This document shows, in pieces, positions 16,991 to 61,998 of a DNA stretch of 64,000 nucleotides (position 1 is its first letter; every line of letters starts with the position of its first letter). The translations under genes were made by a program, and so were the position numbers. The stretch comes from Octopus vulgaris (lineage: Eukaryota), in contig CATOCA020000001.1 of NCBI GenBank assembly GCA_951406725.2, positions 11,594,001-11,658,000 of the forward strand, written 5' to 3'. Below the pieces are notes generated by a model. The model was not told the origin of the DNA. It was given only the letters and a program-made list of their open reading frames with translations, and made no database searches.

Positions 16991-17025
<35 letters not shown>

Positions 17026-17029
<4 letters not shown>

Positions 17030-18135
17030 GCAATATCGTCTCTCATTGCTATCTTCACTATTTGAGAAGAGTATTAAGAATAATCTCATTCGAGATTACA
17101 AACATCTTCGGCTAGTTTAACGCTGTTGTAAACACTAAGCTGATTGGTTGGCAGTTGACACGTGGTCTCTACATAGTCCGCGCCACGTGACACGAATTGT
17201 CTCAACTTATTTTCGCACCATAGTTCCAAGCAGCCAATCACATCTTTCCATTTCTGAAGTTCACTGGGAGCCTGTTGAAGCTTATAAATAAGGTTTCTCA
17301 GAAGAAATATCGTCTTTGACTTTTAGTTCTTCTCAGAGCTAAGTCTCTGACCACAGAGCTCGTCTTAGGTTTCCAGTCCTTCTAAGGGCGAACCTCTGAC
17401 CACACAGCATACTCGACCAAGTTCCAGTTCAAGGCTGGCGACCAACATTAATACAAGAGGTTACAGATACCTCTTATACTGTTAGTGTGAAATATCACCA
17501 TGAAGAAAACGGTTACAATATATCTATAACTAGAGAAAACATCAAGCAAAATAATGAAGAAGCAACAAGAACCAAATCGACAAACGTCGAAGATTTAAAT
17601 CGTACACGAGACCAACTCCAGATTCAACTATAGCGGTTAGGTGAATTATCGCCACGAAGAAAACGGCTACAGAAACATATCTGGAGGTATGTTCATATCA
17701 AGAGAAAGATAAACACAACGAGTGATTCAATTAATCTCAACTGCGACACGCAGCTCTTGATATGGAATTCTACTGTACCTCATAAACGGTAAATCAATTA
17801 TCTGTTCTTGGGTTCTAGATTCTTCTAAGAACTACCTTAAGCTATCTGTTAATACCTGTTGCCAGGCCAATACCAACAACATGAGCTGTGATTCAAATCC
17901 CATCGTCATTTCACTGGTCAGTAATTTTTACATCTAACAAACACACAGACACAAAAACATGCTATCACTTACAAACTCCCAACATCAAGCATGATTGTAA
18001 ACTATGTAAAATAAATATGTATATATCTTAAAAAGAAATCTTGTTGTCATTCCAAACTTATGTGTTTTGCCGCTGCATGTATTATATAGTCAGTAAAGAC
18101 TTATTAAGAATAGGATCACGTTCCTATTTTTATAC
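17026..18135 (+). repeat. 5' LTR (starts TG; CCAAT 17234, TATAAATA about 17283, AATAAA 18010)
   Basis: Matches 20202-21311; I saw only one substitution (cgcacca versus cgcgcca). Confidence 0.95.
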
Positions 18136-18145
18136 TGGTGACCCC
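18136..18145 (+). promoter_or_regulatory. Primer-binding site 1 (tRNA-Trp-like, TGGTGACCCC)
   Basis: Immediately follows the LTR; same first 10 nt as the tRNA-Trp PBS of avian retroviruses. Confidence 0.85.
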
Positions 18146-19140
18146 AACAGGATAGCGAACGAAGAACAGAAGTACAACATCATGCTTAGTAACTTGCCGC
18201 CACCGCTAAGCAATGAAATCAGGGATCTGTTACTGAACCCTATGGAACCGCAGTCGTATTCTTCGATTAAGGAAGAAATATTGAGGCGCACGTCTAGTTC
18301 CAAGCAAAAGGAATTCGCGAAATTGTTTAACGGTGAAGAGCTGGGTAATAGAAAACCCACGCAACTGTTAAGGAGAATGAATGAACTGCTGGGGAACCAG
18401 CAAATAGAGGAATCGTACCTCAAAGAGGTATTTTTCAACAAACTGCCGCATAAAACACAAACTTTGCTCTCGGCAGTAAAAAACCAGAACTCAATCCAAC
18501 AGTTGGCGGACCTAGCGGACGGTATTTTGGAATTATCGTCCAAGGAGACTCTTAGTGCAATTCCTTCAATTTCAAGTGAGATTCAAGAATTGAAGAAATG
18601 TTACGAGCTACAGTTCGAAGCTTTGACAAAAAATATTGAGAGCTTACAACTGGAGAGGAACAGCCGAGCCGATCGGAGAAATAACACAAAGTGGCGTAGG
18701 AGATCGAAGAGCCCTAGCGTGAACAGAAACGCCATATGCTGGTATCACGCAAAATTCGGAGAGAATTCCTTTAAGTGCATCAAACCCTGTGCGTTCGATT
18801 TCCTCGCTAAAAAAAAAAGGAAGTTCGGGAAACTTCTAAACCATAGATTGGAAGCGACGAAGTCTGTGGATAGCATTGTAAAAAGTCGCGTGTTTTTCGT
18901 ATACGACTTAAAATCAAAAGAAAGATTTCTCGTGGATACAGGAGCAGCTTGTTCGATATGGCCGGTAAGGCTCTTAAAACAGAAGACGAAACCCGTGTAT
19001 ATGACTCTTCAAGCGGTGAATCAGTCTGAAATTCAAACGTTTGGAGAGATCAGCTTAACGCTCGACATAAATTTGCGAAGAGAATACAAATGGGTATTCG
19101 TAGTAGCAGATTTACCATATCCAATATTAGGAGCGGATTT
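18146..19140 (+). pseudogene. Gypsy gag (N-terminally deleted) fused in frame to aspartic protease
   Basis: LGNRKPTQLLRRM, CWYHAKFGENSFKCIKPC knuckle, FLVDTGAACS protease site, PILGADF. Confidence 0.9.
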
Positions 19141-19142
19141 TT

Positions 19143-19889
19143 TTGGCGCACTACCATTTAATGGTAGATGTGAACAAACAAAAGTTAATAGATACACAAA
19201 CTTCCCTAAAAATTCAGGGAATGAGATGCAGAAGAACAACAATCAGTCCACTATATTTCATAGCGTCCACAGAAAATAAGTACCACAAAATTTTGGAAAA
19301 CTATCCACAAATAACGAAGCAGTTAGCTCTGAATACCACGTGTACGCATTCGGTGACACATCACATCATCACACAAGGACCACCGAGTTTTTCTAAAGCG
19401 AGGAGATTATCGCCAGAGAAATTGAAGGTGGCTAAGGCGGAGTTTCGCCATATGATGGACCTGGGTATAATCCGTCCTTCTAGTAGTAGCTGGTCAACAC
19501 CATTAGTTATGGTAAAGAAAAACCTCATCGACTGGCGACCTTGTGGTGATTTTAGACAACTGAATGCGAAAACAAAGCCTGACAAATATCCAATACCCCA
19601 CATAATGGATTTTGCGACTTCTTTGAGTGGTTGTACCATTTTTTCGAAGATAGATTTAGTCAGGGCGTACAACCAAATTCCTGTGGCAGAAAACGATATA
19701 CCAAAGACAGCCATTACCACCCCATTTGGTTTGTTTGAATTTCTTCGCATGCCCTTCGGATTGAGGAATGCGGCAAATACTTTTCAAAGGTTTATGGATG
19801 AAGTGACACGAAATTTACCTTTCGTGTTTGCTTATATAGACGATATTCTCATCGCTAGTCCATCGGAAGAAACGCATGAAGAGCATTAA
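19143..19889 (+). pseudogene. Gypsy pol reverse transcriptase, truncated just after YIDD
   Basis: [57 protein letters not shown]. Confidence 0.93.
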
Positions 19890-20023
19890 AAAGAAATCTT
19901 GTTGTCATTCCAAACTTACGTGTATTACCTGGTCATAGTATAATTATTAAGAATGGGATCTCGTGCGATGGTATAATTATACGATACGACCGCATGTGAT
20001 CTTATTTTTATACTGGTGACCCC
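19886..20023 (+). other. Internal divergent U5 copy plus second PBS (20014-20023)
   Basis: 19886-19918 is identical to LTR 18028-18060, then diverges, and ends tttttatac-TGGTGACCCC like the 5' LTR/PBS junction. Confidence 0.9.
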
Positions 20024-20201
20024 TTTAATACGCAGGACTTCTGATATACTGCGCGGCAAACGGTAGACATGAGTTACGAAATTGACACAAGAGAACGATG
20101 AAGGAGGAACTTTTCAAGAAAAACAAAAAAAATAGTTATATATAATAATGTCAATTTTATCGACGTTTTGTCGTAGACAAAACGTCTGGCAAGAGGCTAT
20201 A

Positions 20202-21312
20202 TGTAGCAATATCGTCTCTCATTGCTATCTTCACTATTTGAGAAGAGTATTAAGAATAATCTCATTCGAGATTACAAACATCTTCGGCTAGTTTAACGCT
20301 GTTGTAAACACTAAGCTGATTGGTTGGCAGTTGACACGTGGTCTCTACATAGTCCGCGCCACGTGACACGAATTGTCTCAACTTATTTTCGCGCCATAGT
20401 TCCAAGCAGCCAATCACATCTTTCCATTTCTGAAGTTCACTGGGAGCCTGTTGAAGCTTATAAATAAGGTTTCTCAGAAGAAATATCGTCTTTGACTTTT
20501 AGTTCTTCTCAGAGCTAAGTCTCTGACCACAGAGCTCGTCTTAGGTTTCCAGTCCTTCTAAGGGCGAACCTCTGACCACACAGCATACTCGACCAAGTTC
20601 CAGTTCAAGGCTGGCGACCAACATTAATACAAGAGGTTACAGATACCTCTTATACTGTTAGTGTGAAATATCACCATGAAGAAAACGGTTACAATATATC
20701 TATAACTAGAGAAAACATCAAGCAAAATAATGAAGAAGCAACAAGAACCAAATCGACAAACGTCGAAGATTTAAATCGTACACGAGACCAACTCCAGATT
20801 CAACTATAGCGGTTAGGTGAATTATCGCCACGAAGAAAACGGCTACAGAAACATATCTGGAGGTATGTTCATATCAAGAGAAAGATAAACACAACGAGTG
20901 ATTCAATTAATCTCAACTGCGACACGCAGCTCTTGATATGGAATTCTACTGTACCTCATAAACGGTAAATCAATTATCTGTTCTTGGGTTCTAGATTCTT
21001 CTAAGAACTACCTTAAGCTATCTGTTAATACCTGTTGCCAGGCCAATACCAACAACATGAGCTGTGATTCAAATCCCATCGTCATTTCACTGGTCAGTAA
21101 TTTTTACATCTAACAAACACACAGACACAAAAACATGCTATCACTTACAAACTCCCAACATCAAGCATGATTGTAAACTATGTAAAATAAATATGTATAT
21201 ATCTTAAAAAGAAATCTTGTTGTCATTCCAAACTTATGTGTTTTGCCGCTGCATGTATTATATAGTCAGTAAAGACTTATTAAGAATAGGATCACGTTCC
21301 TATTTTTATACA
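20202..21312 (+). repeat. 3' LTR
   Basis: TGTAGCAATATC...TTTTTATACA, preceded by a weak purine tract ggcaagagg. Confidence 0.95.
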
Positions 21313-23070: not shown

Positions 23071-23390
23071 GAACACGAATATACATACATTTATATTCAC
23101 AGTTGAGCTGGTTTTCTCAAATCATTTTATAAACAATAAAAAATGTGTCCAGGATTTCAAGTATGTTTACAAGAAGAGAATGTTTATATGTTTTTAAAGA
23201 ATCTCAAAAATAGTTGATAAATTTGAAAGAAAGAAAATGTTTTGGATTTTTATATTTCAAGGAAATTCAAAATTTGTGAATCAATTTTTCCTGAAATAGA
23301 AAATATAAACCTTGTCTTCTTCATATACTTTAAATTAATCTATACAATAAATCTCTGCCTTCAGCTAAAAGGTGATATATATATATATAA

Positions 23391-25839
23391 AAGATGGAAA
23401 TTAAGGATTGAAGGATTAAAGGGTTAAATTTCGTAGAGAAAGGATAGGAAAAACGAAGCAGTTATTGTATGAGTACAGACGTTTAACAATAGTAACGAAT
23501 GAGGTACGAAAGATAATGGGATAAAATGTTTTTGCAACTTGCTGCGAATATGAAAGCCGGAAGCCGCTGTTGGAGAAGAAAGGAAGTCTAAAAATTGGGA
23601 ACCGTAAATCGTAATGGCGACTAAGAAGAAGAAGAAGAAGAAAAGAAGAAGACGAATGGCGGAAAAGATGGAAATTAAGGATTGAAGGATTAAAGGGTTA
23701 AATTTCGTAGAGAAAGGATAGGAAAAACGAAGTAGTTATTGTATGAGTACAGACGTTTAACAATAGTAACGAATGAGGTACGAAAGATAATGGGATAAAA
23801 TGTTTTTGCAACTTGCTGCGAATATGAAAGCCGGAAGCCGCTGTTGGAGAAGAAAGGAAGTCTAAAAATTGGGAACCGTAAATCGTAATGGCGACTAAGA
23901 AGAAGAAGAAGAAGAAAAGAAGAAGACGAATGGCGGAAAAGATGGAAATTAAGGATTGAAGGATTAAAGGGTTAAATTTCGTAGAGAAAAGATAGGAAAA
24001 ACGAAGCAGTTATTGTATGAGTACAGACGTTTAACAATAGTAACGAATGAGGTACGAAAGATAATGGGATAAAATGTTTTTGCAACTTGCTGCGAATATG
24101 AAAGCCGGAAGCCGCTGTTGGAGAAGAAAGGAAGTCTAAAAATTGGGAACCGTAAATCGTAATGGCGACTAAGAAGAAGAAGAAGAAGAAAAGAAGAAGA
24201 CGAATGGCGGAAAAGATGGAAATTAAGGATTGAAGGATTAAAGGGTTAAATTTCGTAGAGAAAGGATAGGAAAAACGAAGCAGTTATTGTATGAGTACAG
24301 ACGTTTAACAATAGTAACGAATGAGGTACGAAAGATAATGGGATAAAATGTTTTTGCAACTTGCTGCGAATATGAAAGCCGGAAGCCGCTGTTGGAGAAG
24401 AAAGGAAGTCTAAAAATTGGGAACCGTAAATCGTAATGGCGACTAAGAAGAAGAAGAAGACGAATGGCGGAAAAGATGGAAATTAAGGATTGAAGGATTA
24501 AAGGGTTAAATTTCGTAGAGAAAAGATAGGAAAAACGAAGCAGTTATTGTATGAGTACAGACGTTTAACAATAGTAATGAATGAGGTACGAAAGATAATG
24601 GGATAAAATGTTTTTGCAACTTGCTGCGAATATGAAAGCCGGAAGCCGCTGTTGGAGAAGAAAGGAAGTCTAAAAATTGGGAACCGTAAATCGTAATGGC
24701 GACTAAGAAGAAGAAGAAGAAGAAAAGAAGAAGACGAATGGCGGAAAAGATGGAAATTAAGGATTGAAGGATTAAAGGGTTAAATTTCGTAGAGAAAAGA
24801 TAGGAAAAACGAAGCAGTTATTGTATGAGTACAGACGTTTAACAATAGTAACGAATGAGGTACGAAAGATAATGGGATAAAATGTTTTTGCAACTTGCTG
24901 CGAATATGAAAGCCGGAAGCCGCTGTTGGAGAAGAAAGGAAGTCTAAAAATTGGGAACCGTAAATCTTAATGGCGACTAAGAAGAAGAAGAAGAAGAAAA
25001 GAAGAAGACGAATGGCGGAAAAGATGGAAATTAAGGATTGAAGGATTAAAGGGTTAAATTTCGTAGAGAAAAGATAGGAAAAACGAAGCAGTTATTGTAT
25101 GAGTACAGACGTTTAACAATAGTAACGAATGAGGTACGAAAGATAATGGGATAAAATGTTTTTGCAACTTGCTGCGAATATGAAAGCCGGAAGCCGCTGT
25201 TGGAGAAGAAAGGAAGTCTAAAAATTGGGAACCGTAAATCGTAATGGCGACTAAGAAGAAGAAAAGAAGAAGACGAATGGCGGAAAAGATGGAAATTAAG
25301 GATTGAAGGATTAAAGGGTTAAATTTCGTAGAGAAAAGATAGGAAAAACGAAGCAGTTATTGTATGAGTACAGACGTTTAACAATAGTAACGAATGAGGT
25401 ACGAAAGATAATGGGATAAAATGTTTTTGCAACTTGCTGCGAATATGAAAGCCGGAAGCCGCTGTTGGAGAAGAAAGGAAGTCTAAAAATTGGGAACCGT
25501 AAATCGTAATGGCGACTAAGAAGAAGAAGAAGAAGAAAAGAAGAAGACGAATGGCGGAAAAGATGGAAATTAAGGATTGAAGGATTAAAGGAAGTTAAAT
25601 TTCGTAGAGAAAGGATAGGAAAAATAAATTTCGTAGAGAAAGGATAGGAAAAACAAAGTAGTTATTGTATGAGTACAGACGTTTAACAATAGTAACGAAT
25701 GAGGTACGAAAGATAATGGGATAAAATGTTTTTGCAACTTGCTGCGAATATGAAAGCCGGAAGCCGCTGTTGGAGAAGAAAGGAAGTCTAAAAATTGGGA
25801 ACCGTAAATCGTAATGGCAACTAAGAAGAAGAAGAAGAA
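23391..25839. repeat. Tandem satellite, about 274-bp unit, 9 copies
   Basis: Units start at 23391, 23665, 23939, 24213, 24473, 24747, 25021, 25286, 25560; length variation lies mainly in the (GAA)n tract; the last unit has an internal duplication; flanked by (TA)n. Confidence 0.97.
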
Positions 25840-31057: not shown

Positions 31058-31135
31058 ATGGCCTCAATCCATAATATGATTTATAATAATGATGTGGAAG
31101 GATTGAAAATATTAATTGAGGAGAACCCAGGCGAA
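31058..31135 (+). CDS. Ankyrin-repeat/RING (Mind bomb-like) gene, coding exon 1: MASIHNMIYNNDVEGLKILIEENPGE
   Basis: Acceptor ttttattcag (31052), ATG at 31058, donor gtaagt, phase 0; joins exon 2 to complete an ankyrin repeat. Confidence 0.75.
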
Positions 31136-38607: not shown

Positions 38608-38762
38608 ATTAATAAACCTGATGGAGATGGAACAACTCCTTTAATATTGGCCTGTGAATGGGGCGCCGATAGAAGAATCCTCGAAATATTGATAGAAGCA
38701 GAAGTCAAGATGAGATCGAAAGACGGATGGGGTGATACAGCTTTACATTTGGCTGTTGATGG
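38608..38762 (+). CDS. Ankyrin/RING gene exon 2: INKPDGDGTTPLILACEWG...GDTALHLAVDG
   Basis: attacag / gtaagt; phase 0 to 2; ankyrin TPL and TALH motifs. Confidence 0.93.
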
Positions 38763-40487: not shown

Positions 40488-40635
40488 CTGTCATCTTGAA
40501 GCCGTGGAACTCTTACTATCTCGGGGCAGCGAGATAAACGGAAAGACCAATGATGACCGGACTCCTCTCCATGTTGCTGCAGTGAATGACTGGACAGATG
40601 GCGTGGCATTCCTATTAAAACAGACCGATGTTGAG
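40488..40635 (+). CDS. Ankyrin/RING gene exon 3: [18 protein letters not shown]...RTPLHVAA...KQTDVE
   Basis: ctctcag / gttagt; phase 2 to 0. Confidence 0.93.
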
Positions 40636-44077: not shown

Positions 44078-44232
44078 GTTAATCCTCGAGATAAATATGG
44101 TCAAACACCGCTGCACCGGGCCTGTTGGTTGGGACGCTTGCACACTGTCGAGCTGTTGTTGGGTCACAATGGCATCGATGTCAATGTGGTGGACAACGCT
44201 GGAGACACACCACTGCATCGGGCAGTTCAGCA
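44078..44232 (+). CDS. Ankyrin/RING gene exon 4: [19 protein letters not shown]...[10 protein letters not shown]
   Basis: ttatcag / gtaagt; phase 0 to 2. Confidence 0.94.
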
Positions 44233-45201: not shown

Positions 45202-45238
45202 GCGACAGTATAAAGTGGTGTGTCTGATGCTGAACCAG
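45202..45238 (+). CDS. Ankyrin/RING gene exon 5, 37-nt micro-exon: (Q)RQYKVVCLMLNQ
   Basis: cctttcag / gttagt; phase 2 to 0; supplies the second helix of an ankyrin repeat and is required to keep the frame. Confidence 0.8.
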
Positions 45239-51371: not shown

Positions 51372-51581
51372 GATTCCGTGAAATTCGATATGGAGGGCGA
51401 TCACAAAATGACACCATTTCTTCAAGCCGTCGAGTGGGGTCACCTTGGTGTAATAAAAGAGTTGTTAGCCAAGGGTGCGAAGGTAAATGCAGTCAACGAT
51501 GAAGGCAACAATTGCCTTCATCTCGCACTGCAGAATGATGCATTCCATTCTGAGGAGGAGCACATTGCTCTTTTAGATAAG
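51372..51581 (+). CDS. Ankyrin/RING gene exon 6: DSVKFDMEGDHKMTPFLQAVEWGHLG...GNNCLHLAL...LLDK
   Basis: cacatag / gtaagt; phase 0 to 0. Confidence 0.93.
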
Positions 51582-53086: not shown

Positions 53087-53262
53087 TGTGCCTTTAAGCT
53101 CTCTCTGACCCAGGGAAATAGGACTTGTAGCACTGTAGTTGCTACATACCTATTTCATTTTGGAGCCAACTTTTACCACCCAAATGGAAAGAAAGTGATT
53201 CCGCTGGACCTTATTCGGGACACAAATTTGAAAGAAAAATTAAAAACCTTTTTACCACCACC
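53087..53262 (+). CDS. Ankyrin/RING gene exon 7: CAFKLSLTQGNRTCSTVVATYLFHFGANFYHPNGKKVIPLDLIRDTNLKEKLKTFLPP
   Basis: ttgtag / gtaagt; phase 0 to 2; parallels the Mind bomb segment IACFLA..GADL...NKKGQ.PLDL. Confidence 0.9.
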
Positions 53263-54178: not shown

Positions 54179-54318
54179 GTGTACGTATTGTCGAGTTAGA
54201 GCCTCTGCAGAATCCAAACCCTGTGAACATATAGCCCTCTGTCGTGATTGTTGTATCAGAATTAAGGGGGAATCATGCCCCACTTGTCATCAGCCAATAA
54301 GTGGTGTGAGAGAATTTG
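54179..54318 (+). CDS. Ankyrin/RING gene exon 8: RING-HC finger CTYC...PCEHIALCRDC...CPTC
   Basis: ttccacag / gtaaga; phase 2 to 1; C3HC4 ligand spacing of the MIB/IAP type. Confidence 0.93.
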
Positions 54319-55637
54319 GTAAGAAAACTATTTGATAATCTGTCTGTTTGTCTCATTGACTTTATGATATATAATACGTATATATAGTATTTAATGTGCT
54401 TCAGAATTGTCGTGTAGACCCAGATCTGCCATAATCTGGCAGATTCATGTTGAAAGATGTTCCAGGTGTCATTTCTCTGTGATAGTGTATCTCTCACTAC
54501 ATCCACAAAACATTGCCTTTATCCAAATAGAAGACTTGTCACATTTCAAGAGCGTCCTGTCTGCAGCACAAGACTAATGAATCATGCTGCAGCACAAGAC
54601 TAATGAATGATACAGCAAGATAATTTGCAACTAACTGAAATATCAGTACATCCGTTTTTATATCAGTAAACACCAATTTCTAACAATTGATTGTGAGTCA
54701 TCAAAGTTGATTAATGATTTATCAGTATCTAGGGAAGGTGATGATTAAAGACAAAGATATTCCCAAGAACATCATTTCGAGCTTTGCTGAAGTAAGATAT
54801 TTAATCATAAAATCTCAGGTGAGAGTTTGAGAACCAGCATTAGAAAGTCTGACTGTTAAATCGGTTGTTCTGTGTAGGTGTAAATACTGGCAACTTGTAA
54901 AAAACGACATGGATATTTTATAAAGTTGTCCTCCGGAAATACATAAAGATCTCAAATAATTGCTTGATATGAGATATCATCTCTTGCGGTATATACACAG
55001 AAGGTCACAACTTCGAATATATACTCTAGAAAGTAAATAAAACAAAATTGAATATTAACTCTGTATCAGAATATTGATCATTAAATTACTTTTATCGAAT
55101 GGCTATTTTGTTCTGTCTTGTAAGGGTGATAATACCCAACTCTGCTGCTGGGACTTCGATTCAGCTTTTGAAATATCAGACTCAAACACACAACTACTCA
55201 TTTAATTTTCCATTGATATTACTGTTAATCTCTCCGTTTTCTCTTTCGTTTCTTATATCTGTGCCAGATCTATGACATGGCATCGTTCTCTCACCTCTAG
55301 ACTTCCCAAACCAACATGTTCCTATCTTCTGCTTGATTCTAATGTCAACCAAGTTGGTCATCGAAGTTGGTCATGGTTAGATTATGTAGGATGTCTTAAT
55401 AGGCAGCGGAGATTTAAGAAGATTAGAGATTTAAGAGTTAAGAAGGTTTGAAGGTTATTTTGTTGTGCACCTAAATATTGAGCTATTAAATGGTAAAACC
55501 GTTGAATCTGTCTTCCAAAACCATAATGGTCACCAGTTGTTCATTTATGATACGAATGGCTCACAATAATATAGATTATTAATAAAGATAAAGAAAATTT
55601 TTCTATAAAGTATAAAACTTGAAAACACATATCTCAG

Positions 55638-55688
55638 GGAGTCCAAATTTTAAAGAGAAGGAAGCCAAGATGATGGCAGGGGCAGTTA
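55638..55688 (+). CDS. Mini-exon 9 (51 nt, phase 1-1): GSPNFKEKEAKMMAGAV
   Basis: atctcag / gtgagt; flanking intron sequence homologous to that of mini-exons 10-12. Confidence 0.65.
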
Positions 55689-55754
55689 GTGAGTATAAAT
55701 TAAAAGTACCTTATAGATTTCTATAAATTAACAGTACCTTATCACCGTTATCAC

Positions 55755-56010
55755 TGTGACCGACCAGGCTATCAGATGTTGCTACACATCGCTGGTTACA
55801 ATGCGCTTCGCATTGAGTTAGCCTTCAAGTGGCGCCACCCCGCTGGCTAAGCGAGCAGGCCAACAGAAGAAAGAGTGAGAGAAAGTTGTGGCGAAAGAGT
55901 ACAGCAGGGATCGCTACAACCCCCCCAGCCGGAGCCTCGTGGAACTTTAGGAGTTTTCGCTCAATAAACACTCACAACGCCCGGTCTGGGAATCGAAACC
56001 GCGATCCTAC
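55755..56010 (-). mobile_element. Family C SINE with probable TSD (aacagtacYttat at about 55729 and 56034)
   Basis: Head matches 4414-4550 in reverse; a 3' fragment of the same tail is at 48510-48627. Confidence 0.8.
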
Positions 56011-57698
56011 AACTGTGGGCCGTTGCGCCTCCACAACAGTACTTTATAGATTTCTATAGCATTTATCTTCGCCTGAGTGATTTTACTTGTCAGGCTGATC
56101 GAGAACAAGTTCCGTTCTTAATTTCTATTTGTAAGATTAGGTGTAACATGATTCTATTAAATATTCCACTGAAATTTCATAAAATCAAGGTTAACTTGGT
56201 TGGTAAAATGGTTAAATAAGAAGACACAATAGAGTTAATGATGTCTTTTAGGACAGAGAACTAAAACATTTTGTTGTTTATTTGTAAACAGGTGAGTTAA
56301 CGAGAAAGTTTTTTGTTTCTTTTGCTACTAAGGTCTTTCCTAAGTTTTCTGATAGGTTATTGTTGTTGTTGTTGTTATGTAGCCAGATGTCTGTCATGAC
56401 ATGTTGTTTAGGTACCTACCCTGAATGTCTCAGGTCAGAATAACTTTGTTATAAATTAAAGAAATTAAAAATCAAATCTCTAAGAGTATAAGTATAATGA
56501 TCATTAACGTTGATTAAATATTAAATTTAGTATTGAACGGTGAACATCTGTTTGCATTTAAACAAAACATTGGTGTTGACATAAAATATAAAGATAGGAA
56601 TTAAATATGAGTTCCCTGTGTGACTTGATCTCACAAATCCTTGTTTGTAACTATATATAATATACACTTATTACATTGTTTGAACAACATTTACCATCCA
56701 TATAGTCATTCTTTTTCTCACTCTTGTTAGATTTTAGATGATATTAATGCTAAAAGAGGCACAGTTTTCTAAGTGTTTCACCCTTTGGTCTTGATTGTTG
56801 GGTTCAAATTATTTGATGGAAGTTAGTCATTGTTATTTGACCGGGAAATGAATTAATCATTAGTATTTGGCAGTAGACTTGGTTATATCTTTCTTCGTTT
56901 GCTCATGGAACTACCATAATATTAGCTGTGCTGAGACACAATCATATTCATAGTAATGAAGGCTATATGTTCTTTACTCAGATTATATACAATCTATATT
57001 GATATCTAGTATTGCACCGTCAAGCACATTGCCATTGTATCACATATATACCCAATTATCATGATAATTAATAAGCTATAATTCATTAACTCTCTTACAT
57101 TTGTATGTCTGAAATGTAAACATACTTTGTGATAGGAACATCGTGTACCCTCACCTTACATTTTATATCTTGTTAGGGATCATGTTGGGGAAGGGTGTAT
57201 GGAATTTGGCTTGTGCAGATGTGTTTTAGGGGACAGATTGTGTGCAGAGTGGAGGGTATACACATAAAGGACATGTCTTTATGGGCTCAGTTTCACTTAA
57301 TTAGAGAGGAATGTTTATTAGTGAATTCTAGAGATGAGAAGACTGTGCCATGCCATAGATTTGGCAGAGTTATAAGAAAAGAAAGACAAAGCTAAGAGAA
57401 AACTGTCATCAAGTGTTAATTTTAATGAGATAATTGCTACATTGTTAGAATATTTAATGTGTTTCTAGAGAGAGAGAGGGTGGATTTAGAGATGTTAGTC
57501 TGTTTTATTGTGGACATATTGGGCTATTACATGGGACCACTGTAGAAAGTACAGAAATATTGACCAAAACCATAATGGTCAACAGTTGACCAGTAACGAC
57601 AGGAATTGAATGTCTCACAATAACAAGATAGAGTTTAATAAAAATAAAGATAAAGAAAGTTTATTATTAAATGTAAAACTTGGAAATATTTATTTCAG

Positions 57699-57776
57699 AG
57701 GCTCCAAAGTTTGAGGACAGGTGTGTACAAACAGAGGCTACATGTCAGGAATTAGGGGCTACATCTCAGGCAATTG
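57699..57776 (+). CDS. Mini-exon 10 (78 nt, phase 1-1): APKFEDRCVQTEATCQELGATSQAI
   Basis: tatttcag / gtgagt; open reading frame; length divisible by 3. Confidence 0.75.
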
Positions 57777-58431
57777 GTGAGTATAAAATAATAGTTCCCA
57801 ATTGATTTCTGTAAGGTTTTCTTCCCCCGAGTATATTGTGCTTGAAAGAATAACTGAAAACAGCTTCCATTCCTATTTTCCAATTGAATGATTATCTGTA
57901 TAATAATTGAATTAAAGATATCGATTTACTGATAGTTTATGAAATACCCATTGAGGTTAATGCTGTTGGTAATAATGTTCAAATTAGAAGACACAATAGA
58001 GTTAATTTTGTCATTTGGTCACAGAACTCATCATCATCATCATCATCATCATTTAACATCCGTTTCTTATGGTGGCATGGGTCGGACGATTTCACTGGCA
58101 AGGCAGTAGGCTGCGCCAGGCCCCAATGTGATCTGGCAAGGTTTCCACATATGTATGCCATTCCTAACGCCAACCACTCCGAGAGTGTGGTGGGTGCCTT
58201 TTACGAGCCACCGACACAGGATCCAGTTGAAGTGGGAGCTGGCATCGACCACGTTCGGATGGTGCTTTTTACGTGCCACCGGCACAGGGAACTAGTCAGG
58301 CGGCAGTGACAAGGACCTATGCTTCTATGGTACTTATAACGTGACACGGGAACAGGTGCCAGTCAGGTGGCACTGGCATCGGTCACAACTACAATTTCCA
58401 TTTTGATTTCGATCTTGAATTGCTTTTGATT

Positions 58432-58600
58432 TTTCATTTCTGTTATTGCCTGGTGGACTATGATGAAAACGAGGGGTTCAGGAATGATCCCTAGTGAACT
58501 ACTTCTATCCGGAATTCTTCACTATACTCATTGCCGATCCTCACATTACTACAGGGCCTCTTCAACTCTTATAATCGCTCGTCAATCCCTAGTTTCCGCA
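58432..58600 (-). mobile_element. Internal RTE-clade RT fragment at the duplication junction
   Basis: MRKLGIDE...VRIGNEYSEEFRIEV.H*GS.LNP..FIIVHQAITDE (RTE GVHQGSVLSPLLF region). Confidence 0.75.
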
Positions 58601-60176
58601 TTAGCTGTAAAAAGGATTCTATTAAATATTCCACTTAAATTTCATAAAATCAAGGTAAACGTGGTTGGTAAAATGGTTAAATAAGAAGACACAATAGAGT
58701 TAATGATGTCTTTTAGGACAGAGAACTAAAACATTTTGTTGTTTATTAATAAACAGGTGAGTTAACGAGAAAGATTTTGTTTCTTTTACTACTAAGGTCT
58801 TTCCTAAGTTTTCTGATAGGTTATTGTTGTTGTTGTTATGTAGCCAGATGTCTGTCATGATATGTTGTTTAGGTACCTACCCTGAATGTCTCAGGTCAGA
58901 ATAACTTTGTTATAAATTAAAGAAATTAAAAATCAAATCTCTAAGATTATAAGTATAATGATCATTAACGTTGATTAAATATTAACTTTAGTATTGAACG
59001 GTGAACATCTGTTTGCATTTAAACAAAACATTGGTGTTGACATAAAATATAAAGATAGGAATTAAATATGAGTTCCCTGTGTGACTTGATCTCACAAATC
59101 CTTGTTTGTAACTATATATAATATACACTTATTACATTGTTTGAACAACATTTACCATCCATATAGTCATTCTTTTTCTCACTCTTGTTAGATTTTAGAT
59201 GATATTAATGCTAAAAGAGGCACAGTTTTCTGAGTGTTTCACCCTTTGGTCTTGATTGTTGCGTTCAAATTATTTAATGAAAGATAGTCATTGTTATTTG
59301 ACCAGGAAATGAATTAATCATTAGTATTTGGCAGTGGACTTGGTTATATCTTTCTTCGTTTGCTCATGGAACTACCATAATATTAGCTGTGCTGAGACAC
59401 AATCATATTCATAGTAATGAAGGCTATATGTTCTTTACTCAGATTATATACAATCTATATTGATATCTAGTATTGCACTGTCAAGCACAGTGCCATTGTA
59501 TCACATATATACCCAATTATCATGATAATTAATAAGCTATAATTCATTAACTCTCTTACATTTGTATGTCTGAAATGTAAACATATTTTGTCATAGGAAC
59601 ATCCTGTACCCTCACCTTACATTTTACACCTTGTTAGGGATCATGTTGGGGAAGGGTGTATGGAATTTGGCTTGTGGAGATGATTTTTAGGGGACAGATT
59701 GTGTGCGGGGTGGAGGGGATACACATAAAGGACATCTTTATGGCCTCAGTGTTACTTAATTAGAGAGGAATGTTTATTAGTGAATTCTAGAGATGAGAAG
59801 ACTGTGCCATGCCATAGATTTGGCACAGTTATAAGAAAAGAAAGACAAAGCTAAGAGAAAACTGTCATCAAGTGTTAATTAAATGAGATAATTGCAACAT
59901 TGTTAGAATATTTAATGTGTTTTTAGAGAGAGAGAGAGAGAGAGAGAGAGGCAGAGGGTGGATTTAGGAATGTTAGTCTGTTTTATTGTGGACATATTGA
60001 GCTATTACATGGGACCACTTTAGAAAGTACAGAAATATTGACCAAAACCATAATGGTCAACAGTTGACCAGTAACAACAGGAATTGAATGTCTCACAATA
60101 ACAAGATAGAATTTAATAAAAATAAAGATAAAGAAAGTTTATTATTAAATGTAAAACTTGGAAATATTTATTTCAG

Positions 60177-60254
60177 AGGCTCCAAAGTTTGAAGACAGGT
60201 GTGTACAAACAGAGGCTACATGTCAGGAATTAGGGGCTACATCTCAGGCAATTG
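60177..60254 (+). CDS. Mini-exon 11 (78 nt, phase 1-1): APKFEDRCVQTEATCQELGATSQAI
   Basis: tttcag / gtgagt; differs from mini-exon 10 by one synonymous change (GAG/GAA). Confidence 0.75.
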
Positions 60255-60505
60255 GTGAGTATAAAATAATAGTTCCCAATTGATTTCTGTAAGGTTTTCT
60301 TCCCCCGAGTATATTGTGCTTGAAAGAATAACTGAAAACTGCTTCCATTCCTATTTTCCAATTGAACGATTATCTGTATAATAATTGAATTAAAGATATC
60401 GATTTACTGAGAGTTTATGAAATACCCATTGAGGTTAATGCTGTTGGTAATAATGTTTAAATTAGAAGACACAATAGAGTTAATTTTGTCATTTGGTCAC
60501 GGAAC

Positions 60506-60552
<47 letters not shown>

Positions 60553-61061
60553 GTTTAACGTCCGTTTTTATAGTAGCATGGGTCGGACGATTTCACTGGC
60601 AAGGCAGTAGGCTGCGTCAGGCTCCAATGTGATCTGGAAAGGTTTCCACATATGTATGCCATTCCTAATGCCAACCACTCCGAGAGTGTGGTGGGTGCTT
60701 TCTACGTGCCACCGACACAGGAGCCAGTTGAGGTGGGAGCTGGCATTGACCACGTTTGGATGGTGCTTTTTACGTGCCACCGGCACAGGGAACCAGTCAG
60801 GCGGAACTAGTAACAAACCACGCTTGAATGGTACTTATTACGTGCCAACGGCACAGGTGTCAGTCAGGCGGCACTGGCATCGGCCATAATTACAATTTCC
60901 ATTTTGATTTCGATCTTGTTTTGATTTTGATTTGTGATTTCTGGTTTTTGGTTTTACTTGACTCAAAGGAATTGAATGTCTCACAACAAGAAAGAGTTTA
61001 TTTAAAATAACGATAAAGAAATTCTATTATTAATTCTAAAACTTGGATATATTTATTTTAG

Positions 61062-61118
61062 AGTCTCCAAAGTCTGAAGACAAGTGTGTACAAACAGAGG
61101 TTGCGTCTGAGGAAATTG
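61062..61118 (+). CDS. Mini-exon 12 (57 nt, phase 1-1): SPKSEDKCVQTEVASEEI
   Basis: attttag / gtgagt; older paralogue of mini-exons 10 and 11. Confidence 0.75.
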
Positions 61119-61998
61119 GTGAGTATAAAATAACAGTTGCCAATTGATTTCTATAAGTTTTACTTCCCCTGGCCATATTGTGCTTCAAAGAATAACTGAA
61201 AACAGGTTACATTCCGATTTTACGATTGAAAGATTAACTGTATAATAGTTCTATTAAAGATATCGATATTATTGAAAGTTTATGGAATAACCATTGAGGA
61301 TAGCACTGTTGGTAATAATGTTTAAATTAGAAGACACAACAGAGTTCATTCTGTCATTTGATCACGAAATTAATAATGCTGTTTAACCCTTAACTTCCAA
61401 ACTTTTATTCATACTTTTTGGCTTTGCCTGATGTCTCAGGAGTTAAAAATCATATATAGCATTTAAATTTTCTTCATATGTGATTTATTTTGGAAATTAT
61501 GATAATTGTTTCGATAAGTCCCAAATGGGGATCGCTGAGAAAAAGCATATTTATCTCTTTCTATTCAATTGCAATAATAAAGATTTTAGTTTTTCTGAAA
61601 CTAGAGTATCAAATGCGAATGTGTATGAAATATCAATGAATGATATAGAAGGGAAATGCAAGAAAAAAAAACAAAACTTTTCAAAACAGTCAATATTTTT
61701 GTAGTTCAAAAATTGCGATTTATGATATAAATGTCCTCTAGAATTAGCCAGAGTTAATAATGACAAAATTTAATTACTAAATATTGTTAAACACACCTCT
61801 ACAAATGCAATGTAAGCAAGCAATTCACTTAAAATACAACGAACAACCGGCAGTGAAACTATTTTTATCAGATCCTCAAATGGGGCTCATGGCAGGCCAT
61901 GGGTTAAGTGTAAGCAGGAGAATTAGGATTTTGTTTGTTTTTCATTCTTACTGTTTATGGATAGGCAGTTATTGTTATTGTTGTTGTTGTTTAGGCAG

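Follow-up and report, generated by a model that had tools for sequence, protein, structure and literature searches.

In-frame mini-exons in an octopus ankyrin-RING-Death gene as a predicted LC8-binding linker, most likely copied from a Death-domain exon

Results

A mini-exon array lies between RING and Death-domain exons

We analysed a 64,000-nucleotide stretch of the Octopus vulgaris genome (hereafter the window; GenBank assembly GCA_951406725.2, contig CATOCA020000001.1, positions 11,594,001 to 11,658,000 of the forward strand; G000:C31:11594001-11658000 in our numbering), whose nearest named proteins all come from Octopus. It carries a gene with ankyrin repeats and a RING finger and, downstream of the RING exon, a series of four mini-exons, three of which encode peptides resembling the motif bound by LC8. 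All features given below by window position are on the forward strand. Mini-exon 1 (55638-55688, 51 nt) encodes KEKEAKMM, lacks an LC8 anchor, has a weaker acceptor and is apparently skipped. Mini-exons 2 (57699-57776, 78 nt) and 3 (60177-60254, 78 nt) both encode EDRCVQTE, a peptide class also present in database models, with one synonymous change in exon 3 relative to exon 2, and mini-exon 4 (61062-61118, 57 nt) encodes EDKCVQTE. As an earlier annotation of this DNA (the original prediction) had it, all four have AG/GTGAGT sites, phase 1-1 and lengths divisible by three that keep the RING frame open, and the translations agree that three of them encode D-[RK]-C-V-Q-T-E.

The introns around the mini-exons are homologous, as had also been proposed, with 70-82% identity among non-twin copies, and the 2.47-kb tandem duplication described there is present: its two units (56136-58442, carrying exon 2, and 58600-60943, carrying exon 3) are offset by about 2.46-2.50 kb and 96.3% identical over aligned bases. 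An assembly artefact is unlikely here, given the 86 mismatches between the units and the mini-exon to mini-exon joints in contigs. The array had been called a growing one; growth is indistinguishable from gain and loss. Beyond the window it reaches a fifth homologous exon, which is the first Death-domain exon. A 16-nt word encoding CVQTE has 53 exact matches in the genome against 4 for the reversed control; spread by a transposon was rejected, as 51 of the 53 words fall in 22 clusters (our own grouping).

The rest of the gene is as follows. A putative first coding exon (31058-31135), with a GT donor and no Pfam match when taken alone, is followed by ankyrin exons at 38608-38762 (Pfam Ank_2, E 5e-7; family tblastn), 40488-40635 (in frame, 68% to P0003 in tblastn), 44078-44232 (Pfam Ank, E 1e-12) and 51372-51581 (Pfam Ank_4, E 7e-9; joined to 53087 in three of four probable RNA runs), with a short ankyrin-region exon at 45202-45238 (AG/GT, in frame). 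The last-ankyrin/post-ankyrin exon (53087-53262) corresponds by homology to the equivalent exon in the MIB2-like gene of this genome and has an RNA joint to the RING exon (54179-54318; C3HC4_3, Pfam E 4.5e-6), which ends in phase 1, contains the C3HC4 zinc ligands and shares ancestry with that gene's first RING. Just 3′ of it, an in-frame intronic stop (GKKTI*) ends at 54335. The intron that begins at 61119 and runs to the window end (64000) leads to two further exons. Death-domain exon 1 (G000:C31:11659354-11659425; 72 nt, phase 1-1) lies 1.35 kb past the window end and has flanks like those of the mini-exons; Death-domain exon 2 (from G000:C31:11662125; Pfam Death E 1e-5 on this exon alone) carries the stop codon. 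A second intact Death exon 2 lies 8 kb beyond the first (G000:C31:11670279-11670484; L002:2279-2484); no Death exon 1 belonging to it was found, the frame likewise ends at 529 amino acids when this exon is used, and it may be an alternative last exon.

With mini-exons 2-4 included, this exon set yields an open frame of 529 amino acids from the ATG at 31058, and the frame stays open with zero or all four mini-exons too. The motif glutamines (residues 377, 403 and 429) follow the last RING cysteine (356) and precede the Death domain (442); the array, originally taken for a C-terminal tail, is therefore a linker. Wherever the blocks that we fetched from the genome cover the region, mini-exons occupy the same place, downstream of the post-ankyrin/RING exons and upstream of Death exon 1.

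The mini-exons are spliced at family level

RNA evidence came from the contigs of four runs guessed to be RNA, from four studies, aligned at a likeness of at least 93%, and near-identical paralogues (for example at C6:135.44 Mb, with the same exon classes) contribute to the joints. The GT..AG joints of these contigs come from splicing, and splicing of the exons is shown at family level. One joint connects the RING exon to mini-exon 2 (54317-57698, GT..AG) and bypasses mini-exon 1; joints from mini-exon 2 or 3 to mini-exon 4 (GT..AG) occur in two runs, and the joint from mini-exon 4 to Death exon 1 is represented by one 29-nt contig end. The claim that the exons are spliced is thus borne out for mini-exons 2-4 and does not appear to hold for mini-exon 1, which has no QT and is skipped by the RING junction among the joints listed, a set that excludes 91 weaker ones. 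Read-through from the RING exon to the stop at 54335 was also considered and found no support as the main form: intronic contigs have a depth of 11-33 against 893 at the spliced joint, contig depth being a weak measure. One O. sinensis model (P0004) does end by read-through after the RING.

Database proteins give a similar picture. The peptide D[RK]CVQTE occurs in 13 of 93 proteins and the mini-exon 1 peptide in none of them; NCBI models of Octopus vulgaris, O. sinensis and O. bimaculoides have such exons between RING and Death domain, and isoform models of one O. sinensis locus (P0020-P0025) vary in their linker exons.

An ankyrin-RING-Death family distinct from Mind bomb

A profile search returned 68 proteins, mostly ankyrin-RING-Death, 67 of which are named Octopus vulgaris, O. 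sinensis or O. bimaculoides. A wider library gave 185 matches, 27 of them scanned with Pfam; ten looked up by name comprise eight from Octopus, one from Argonauta and one from Branchiostoma, the last two without ankyrin or RING. Our search found no relatives of the RING-linker region longer than 511 amino acids. At the genome level, 136 of 148 candidates matched Death exon 2; C29 and C31 together hold about 80 of these, and the count takes in broken copies and RIPK1-like genes. The best solved match to the Death domain of paralogue P0091 is that of RIPK1 (E 2e-8), and the Death domain in the model of paralogue P0060 has a predicted local distance difference test (pLDDT) score of 79-94; together with Pfam, these identify the family domain as a six-helix Death fold.

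The original prediction had named the gene a Mind bomb-like E3 ligase. The ankyrin array followed by RING1 is indeed a Mind bomb feature, the MIB2-like gene on C26 is the match for the post-ankyrin exon and the RING, and that gene has a homologous ankyrin array and the same phase-1 intron after its RING exon. The rest of the Mind bomb architecture, including the domains that bind substrate, is lacking, and a Death domain is fused instead. The N-terminal MZM (two MIB/HERC2 domains and a ZZ finger) has 10 PF06701 matches in the genome, none on C31; none of the 68 family matches lists MIB/HERC2 among its Pfam domains; and the 20 kb upstream of the window hold no family exon. The REP part (Mib repeats, SH3_15) has 18 PF18346 matches, all on C26 and C13. 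Coiled coil and terminal catalytic RING are also missing, with a single RING of RING1 type and a frame that ends in the Death domain. Judged by its sequence, then, the window gene is a member of an octopus ankyrin-RING-Death family and not a Mind bomb gene proper. Of the parts of human MIB1, the coiled coil and RING3 alone form dimers and pass on ubiquitin, the ANK-RING1-2 fragment being a predominantly monomeric species with no activity (PMC10925295). Since the family keeps RING1 only, it would lack exactly the part that dimerises and catalyses in MIB1, and ligase activity of its RING appears doubtful.

The number of anchor-bearing exons (those with xQT) varies from 0 to 6 per block-strand, in agreement with the predicted difference in copy number between paralogues. 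In P0032 and P0038 the linker is filled with low-complexity repeats of PSTSQPE type and not with QT exons. Elsewhere, nine tandem copies of the RING exon lie within 7 kb (G000:C30:5122599-5129048, L103), the same habit of exon duplication acting on the RING. A cluster of SH3_15 matches on C26 (G000:C26:0.73-1.66 Mb, L115-L119), one locus of which has ankyrin and RING1-type exons, is probably another expansion derived from MIB2, one in which the repeats were kept. Some family members are broken or mis-assembled, as seen from frameshifts in Death exon 2 of the paralogue at the P0002 locus (G000:C31:1662243-1662397) and from exons of 71, 73 or 77 nt at a few other loci.

The mini-exons are most likely copies of Death-domain exon 1

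A single tight acceptor and donor pattern finds both Death exon 1 and the QT mini-exons (70 matches, control 0). Scanning with a flank matrix, over 63 blocks (1.06 Mb) picked from earlier matches and hence not a census, gave 171 exons, against zero in the reversed control, and these comprise 114 mini-exons, 56 Death exons and one unrelated 87-nt match, which was dropped. A 57-nt deletion variant of the Death exon stands among the 114 mini-exons in the constraint count and as a Death exon in the tree and later counts. In a gapless register, the mini-exon classes agree with Death exon 1 at 57% of nucleotides, compared with 37% for shuffles (highest 40%), and window mini-exon 2 reaches 69% with its best Death exon. 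Seven mini-exons retain the length of 72 nt, and in several O. bimaculoides models the RING is followed directly by Death.

On the grounds of shared flanks, phase and register, the mini-exons are most likely diverged copies of Death-domain exon 1. The direction from Death exon to mini-exon is likely because the Death fold is ancient, the tree itself being unrooted. The flank tree is star-like at its base, a shape compatible with one origin of the QT motif or several.

Kinase-less RIPK1-like genes form a tandem cluster on C26 (G000:C26:12.80-12.93 Mb, L124-L129); their Death domain is interrupted at the same point as in the family, its first exon being 75 nt long and of phase 1-1, and for the family's Death domain the cluster is a candidate donor and partner. 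Such proteins (octopus P0117 and P0122, Argonauta P0115) have a similar Death domain but neither ankyrin nor RING. Likeness of the flanks is only suggestive of homology, the donor score being equalled by 3 of 560 background sites and the acceptor not significant, and nhmmer with 100-nt Death-exon flanks found nothing in RIPK1-like or MIB loci, so this donor is plausible and not proven. Tandem Death-domain matches with stop codons on C1 (G000:C1:102.72-102.73 Mb and 216.93-216.96 Mb) look like processed or decayed copies. In O. bimaculoides, P0110 is an adhesion G-protein-coupled receptor (LRR-GPS-7TM) ending in a Death domain near the family's (E 3e-16); one Death-domain adhesion receptor of this kind is mentioned in the available part of PMC6408891.

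The motif matches LC8 rules and is under constraint

Coding potential is kept in nearly all mini-exons: 111 of 114 mini-exons have lengths divisible by three, and no in-frame stop occurs in these 111. Glutamine occupies position 0 in 94 of 114, and the xQT anchor is found in 82. The motif classes include EDRCVQTE, EVKETQTL, KDKETQTQ, EDKEVQTV, EDKASQTE, SDKAVQTV, EDKGVQTD and AEKEIQTE, and an O. bimaculoides protein (P0106) has SDKGVQTV. The pattern D[KR]x[TVI]QT is present in 61/111 mini-exons and in 0/52 Death exons, and the Q0 and T+1 pair in 11/21 mini-exon classes and 0/16 Death exon classes. Loose LC8 motifs number 21 in 2,678 linker residues versus 0 in 15,166 residues elsewhere; codon-shuffled exons contained one in 266 and 305 of 100,000 shuffles (~0.3%).

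We scored the peptides with the published consensus and position rules. Mini-exon 4 matches the consensus [D/S]K-X-[T/V/I]-Q-[T/V]-[D/E] exactly (PMC3078936), and mini-exons 2 and 3 depart from it solely by R for K at -3, a substitution that the position rules favour (PMC6607443). The validated binders EDKATQTL, SDKGVQTP, EDKGVQCE and EDKSTQTT (Table S4, PMC6607443) are near-identical to family motifs, and in our own reading of that paper D[KR] at -4/-3 occurs in 13/79 binders and 1/32 non-binders. The octopus genome has a canonical LC8 gene (L021:1489-1755, intronless). Complex prediction with four LC8 chains and two chains of P0002 residues 168-216 scored 0.39-0.43 against 0.23 for one control, with no alignment used, and counts neither for nor against binding. 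In the P0060 model the linker has pLDDT mostly <50, with low-confidence helices.

Conservation is highest at D-4, K-3, V/T-1, Q0 and T+1. In a clade of five mini-exon classes, set by the intron flanks alone (bootstrap 100), the rate of replacement changes (pN) at motif sites is 0.034 and that of synonymous changes (pS) 0.39, with pN 0.37 at other sites, which ranks first of 2,002 site sets. D-4, V-1, Q0 and T+1 are invariant there, and the V, Q and T codons vary synonymously. Neutral simulation retained the motif in 219 of 200,000 runs. These substitution patterns show strong purifying selection on the LC8-motif positions of this clade. Together with the match to published rules, which the original prediction had invoked, they make it probable, with good confidence on our part, that LC8 binds the family motifs.

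Alternative explanations

Several observations weigh against an LC8-bound linker in an active ligase. The RNA contigs derive from runs guessed to be RNA, at 93% likeness or more and with paralogues mixed in. An anchor exon is lacking from 28 of 62 block-strands (coverage being partial), so the motif is dispensable in many family members, and xQT is absent from 10 of 21 mini-exon classes. The five-class clade was chosen with the tree already in view, and pairs within it are interdependent. When all 21 classes are pooled, the motif sites give a weak signal (rank 89 of 2,002); in 5 of 50 recent 78-nt copies the anchor is broken (QT to KK or QR). LC8 binding needs an extended strand, and AlphaFold places a low-confidence helix (pLDDT about 36-53) over the P0060 linker, partly over the motif. 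Anchor-bearing peptides often fail to bind LC8, the 32 non-binders in the available part of PMC6607443 including one D-R-x-I-Q-T. As for the RING, the one retained belongs to a type without activity in human MIB1, and in the window copy His takes the place after the last Cys that is held by Arg in 16/44 family RINGs.

A first alternative shares the LC8-binding step with our interpretation: LC8 binds and the RING is inert, the protein being a dimerised Death-domain adaptor or decoy and not a ligase. We regard this as unlikely. In its favour, the family RING profile reaches 63.6 bits for the first RING of that MIB2-like gene and 13.9 for the terminal one, RING1 and RING2 of human MIB1 are both without activity (PMC10925295), and residues near the last Cys vary widely in the family. 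An inert RING is harder to reconcile with zinc ligands that, one excepted, show conservation of 90% or more in 46 family proteins, with the Arg just mentioned, or with the closest RING folds, which are those of the active dimeric RINGs IDOL, cIAP and XIAP (a weak match, E 4e-3). At the sites of the E2-contact and linchpin residues of MIB1 RING3 (P993, I994 and R996), the window RING reads P-T-C-H.

The mini-exons could also be tolerated spacers of a duplication-prone region, with a functionless QT motif inherited by descent. Many copies are of very recent date (96-100% identity), Death exon 1 itself already has E/D-K at -4/-3, and the broken anchors and motif-less paralogues fit as well. We nevertheless consider it improbable: descent from Death exons does not supply the Q0 and T+1 pair, seen in none of their 16 classes, the V, Q and T codons of the five-class clade changed synonymously with zero replacements, retention was rare in the neutral simulation, and the motif also occurs in O. 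bimaculoides (P0106).

Least probable of all, the conserved residues could serve another partner or a helical role, as a TRAF-type site (motif [PSAT]xQE/EE) or as spare copies of Death helix 1 swapping between chains; helical ancestry, the low-confidence predicted helices, the Death-domain context and TCQE, ASEE, TQEE and TVEE just downstream of several motifs fit such a role, but the conservation peak has the LC8 pattern, the Thr of TCQE is Ile in 12/50 copies, and the Leu, Leu, Val-Ala and Trp conserved in Death exon 1 are lost from the mini-exons.

Other features of the window

An LTR-retrotransposon-like element occupies 17022-21311, with 1.1-kb direct repeats 99.9% identical and DUF7041 and reverse transcriptase frames inside. 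Positions 23389-25839 hold a tandem array whose units measure about 274 bp and are about 95% identical.

Discussion

We find it reasonably probable, taking the whole of the evidence, that the mini-exons are spliced in-frame cassettes which form a predicted LC8-binding linker between RING and Death domain and were copied from Death exon 1. Along this path, copies of Death exon 1 would have lost core residues and gained Q0 and T+1, the homology being seen in the exons themselves and the direction being the likelier of the two. The resulting D-[KR]-x-[VT]-Q-T motifs are predicted docking sites for the LC8 dimer, which would bridge the motifs of two chains and bring together the RINGs at one end of the linker and the Death domains at the other end. 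Such an LC8 zipper would likely take over from the MIB2 ancestor's dimerising coiled coil, which was lost, and the number and skipping of exons would set the avidity and spacing of the paired Death domains and RINGs.

Paired chains may then meet a Death-domain signalling platform of RIPK1/FADD type, a role that we infer from the affinities of the Death domain and from that of MIB2, which in mammals acts on RIPK1/cFLIP death signalling (PMC7815719). That LC8 pairs and stiffens the linker, with exon number and skipping setting avidity and spacing at such a platform, seems to us somewhat more plausible than its opposite. We are slightly on the sceptical side as to the paired RING being an active ubiquitin ligase. 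The fullest version remains tentative: a hundred-gene, MIB2-derived family whose coiled coil was replaced by an LC8 zipper made of Death exon copies, with copy number and skipping tuning how far the RINGs dimerise and how active they are at death and immune platforms of RIPK1/IMD type.

Multivalent LC8 arrays are already known. In ASCIZ/ATMIN, Nup159, Chica, Bassoon and the KANK1 linker, several xQT motifs likewise lie in a low-confidence or disordered stretch, and in ASCIZ motif number tunes activity (PMC5963919). Unlike those clients, the octopus protein has each motif on its own symmetric exon, most likely copied from the exon of a folded domain, and its array lies between RING and Death and varies from paralogue to paralogue, apparently also by splicing. 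Oyster IAPs (BIR-DD-RING) are likewise a lineage-specific molluscan expansion joining Death and RING, but they have BIR in place of ankyrin, their RING is last and not internal, and no motif-exon array is described in the available part of PMC8917759. The literature that we searched, from which subscription journals were mostly absent, holds no description of the octopus ankyrin-RING-Death family or its array, no paper on an octopus MIB2 gene family and none on a ligase with multivalent TQT motifs for LC8; supplements to octopus genome papers may list the expansion. Neither family nor array appears in the available parts of PMC6408891, PMC11463336, PMC11431876, PMC13218726, PMC4199593, PMC8917759 and PMC12057147, and the LC8 literature found does not mention exon duplication. 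What is apparently undescribed is an array made of domain-exon copies, its variation across a family and its placement between RING and Death.

If our interpretation is true, the octopus genome would hold a record of a linear-motif array born from the exon of a folded domain. The origins of short linear motifs and multivalent arrays are usually inferred from scattered substitutions. Here parent exon, 72-nt intermediates, motif-bearing and motif-less classes and arrays of 0-6 copies coexist in one genome, so that the path from a helix-coding exon to an LC8-type site can be traced peptide by peptide, and the paralogue series would be a natural titration of LC8 valency. The octopus ankyrin-RING-Death family, labelled MIB2-like in databases, would be a candidate regulator of cell-death or immune signalling in cephalopods.

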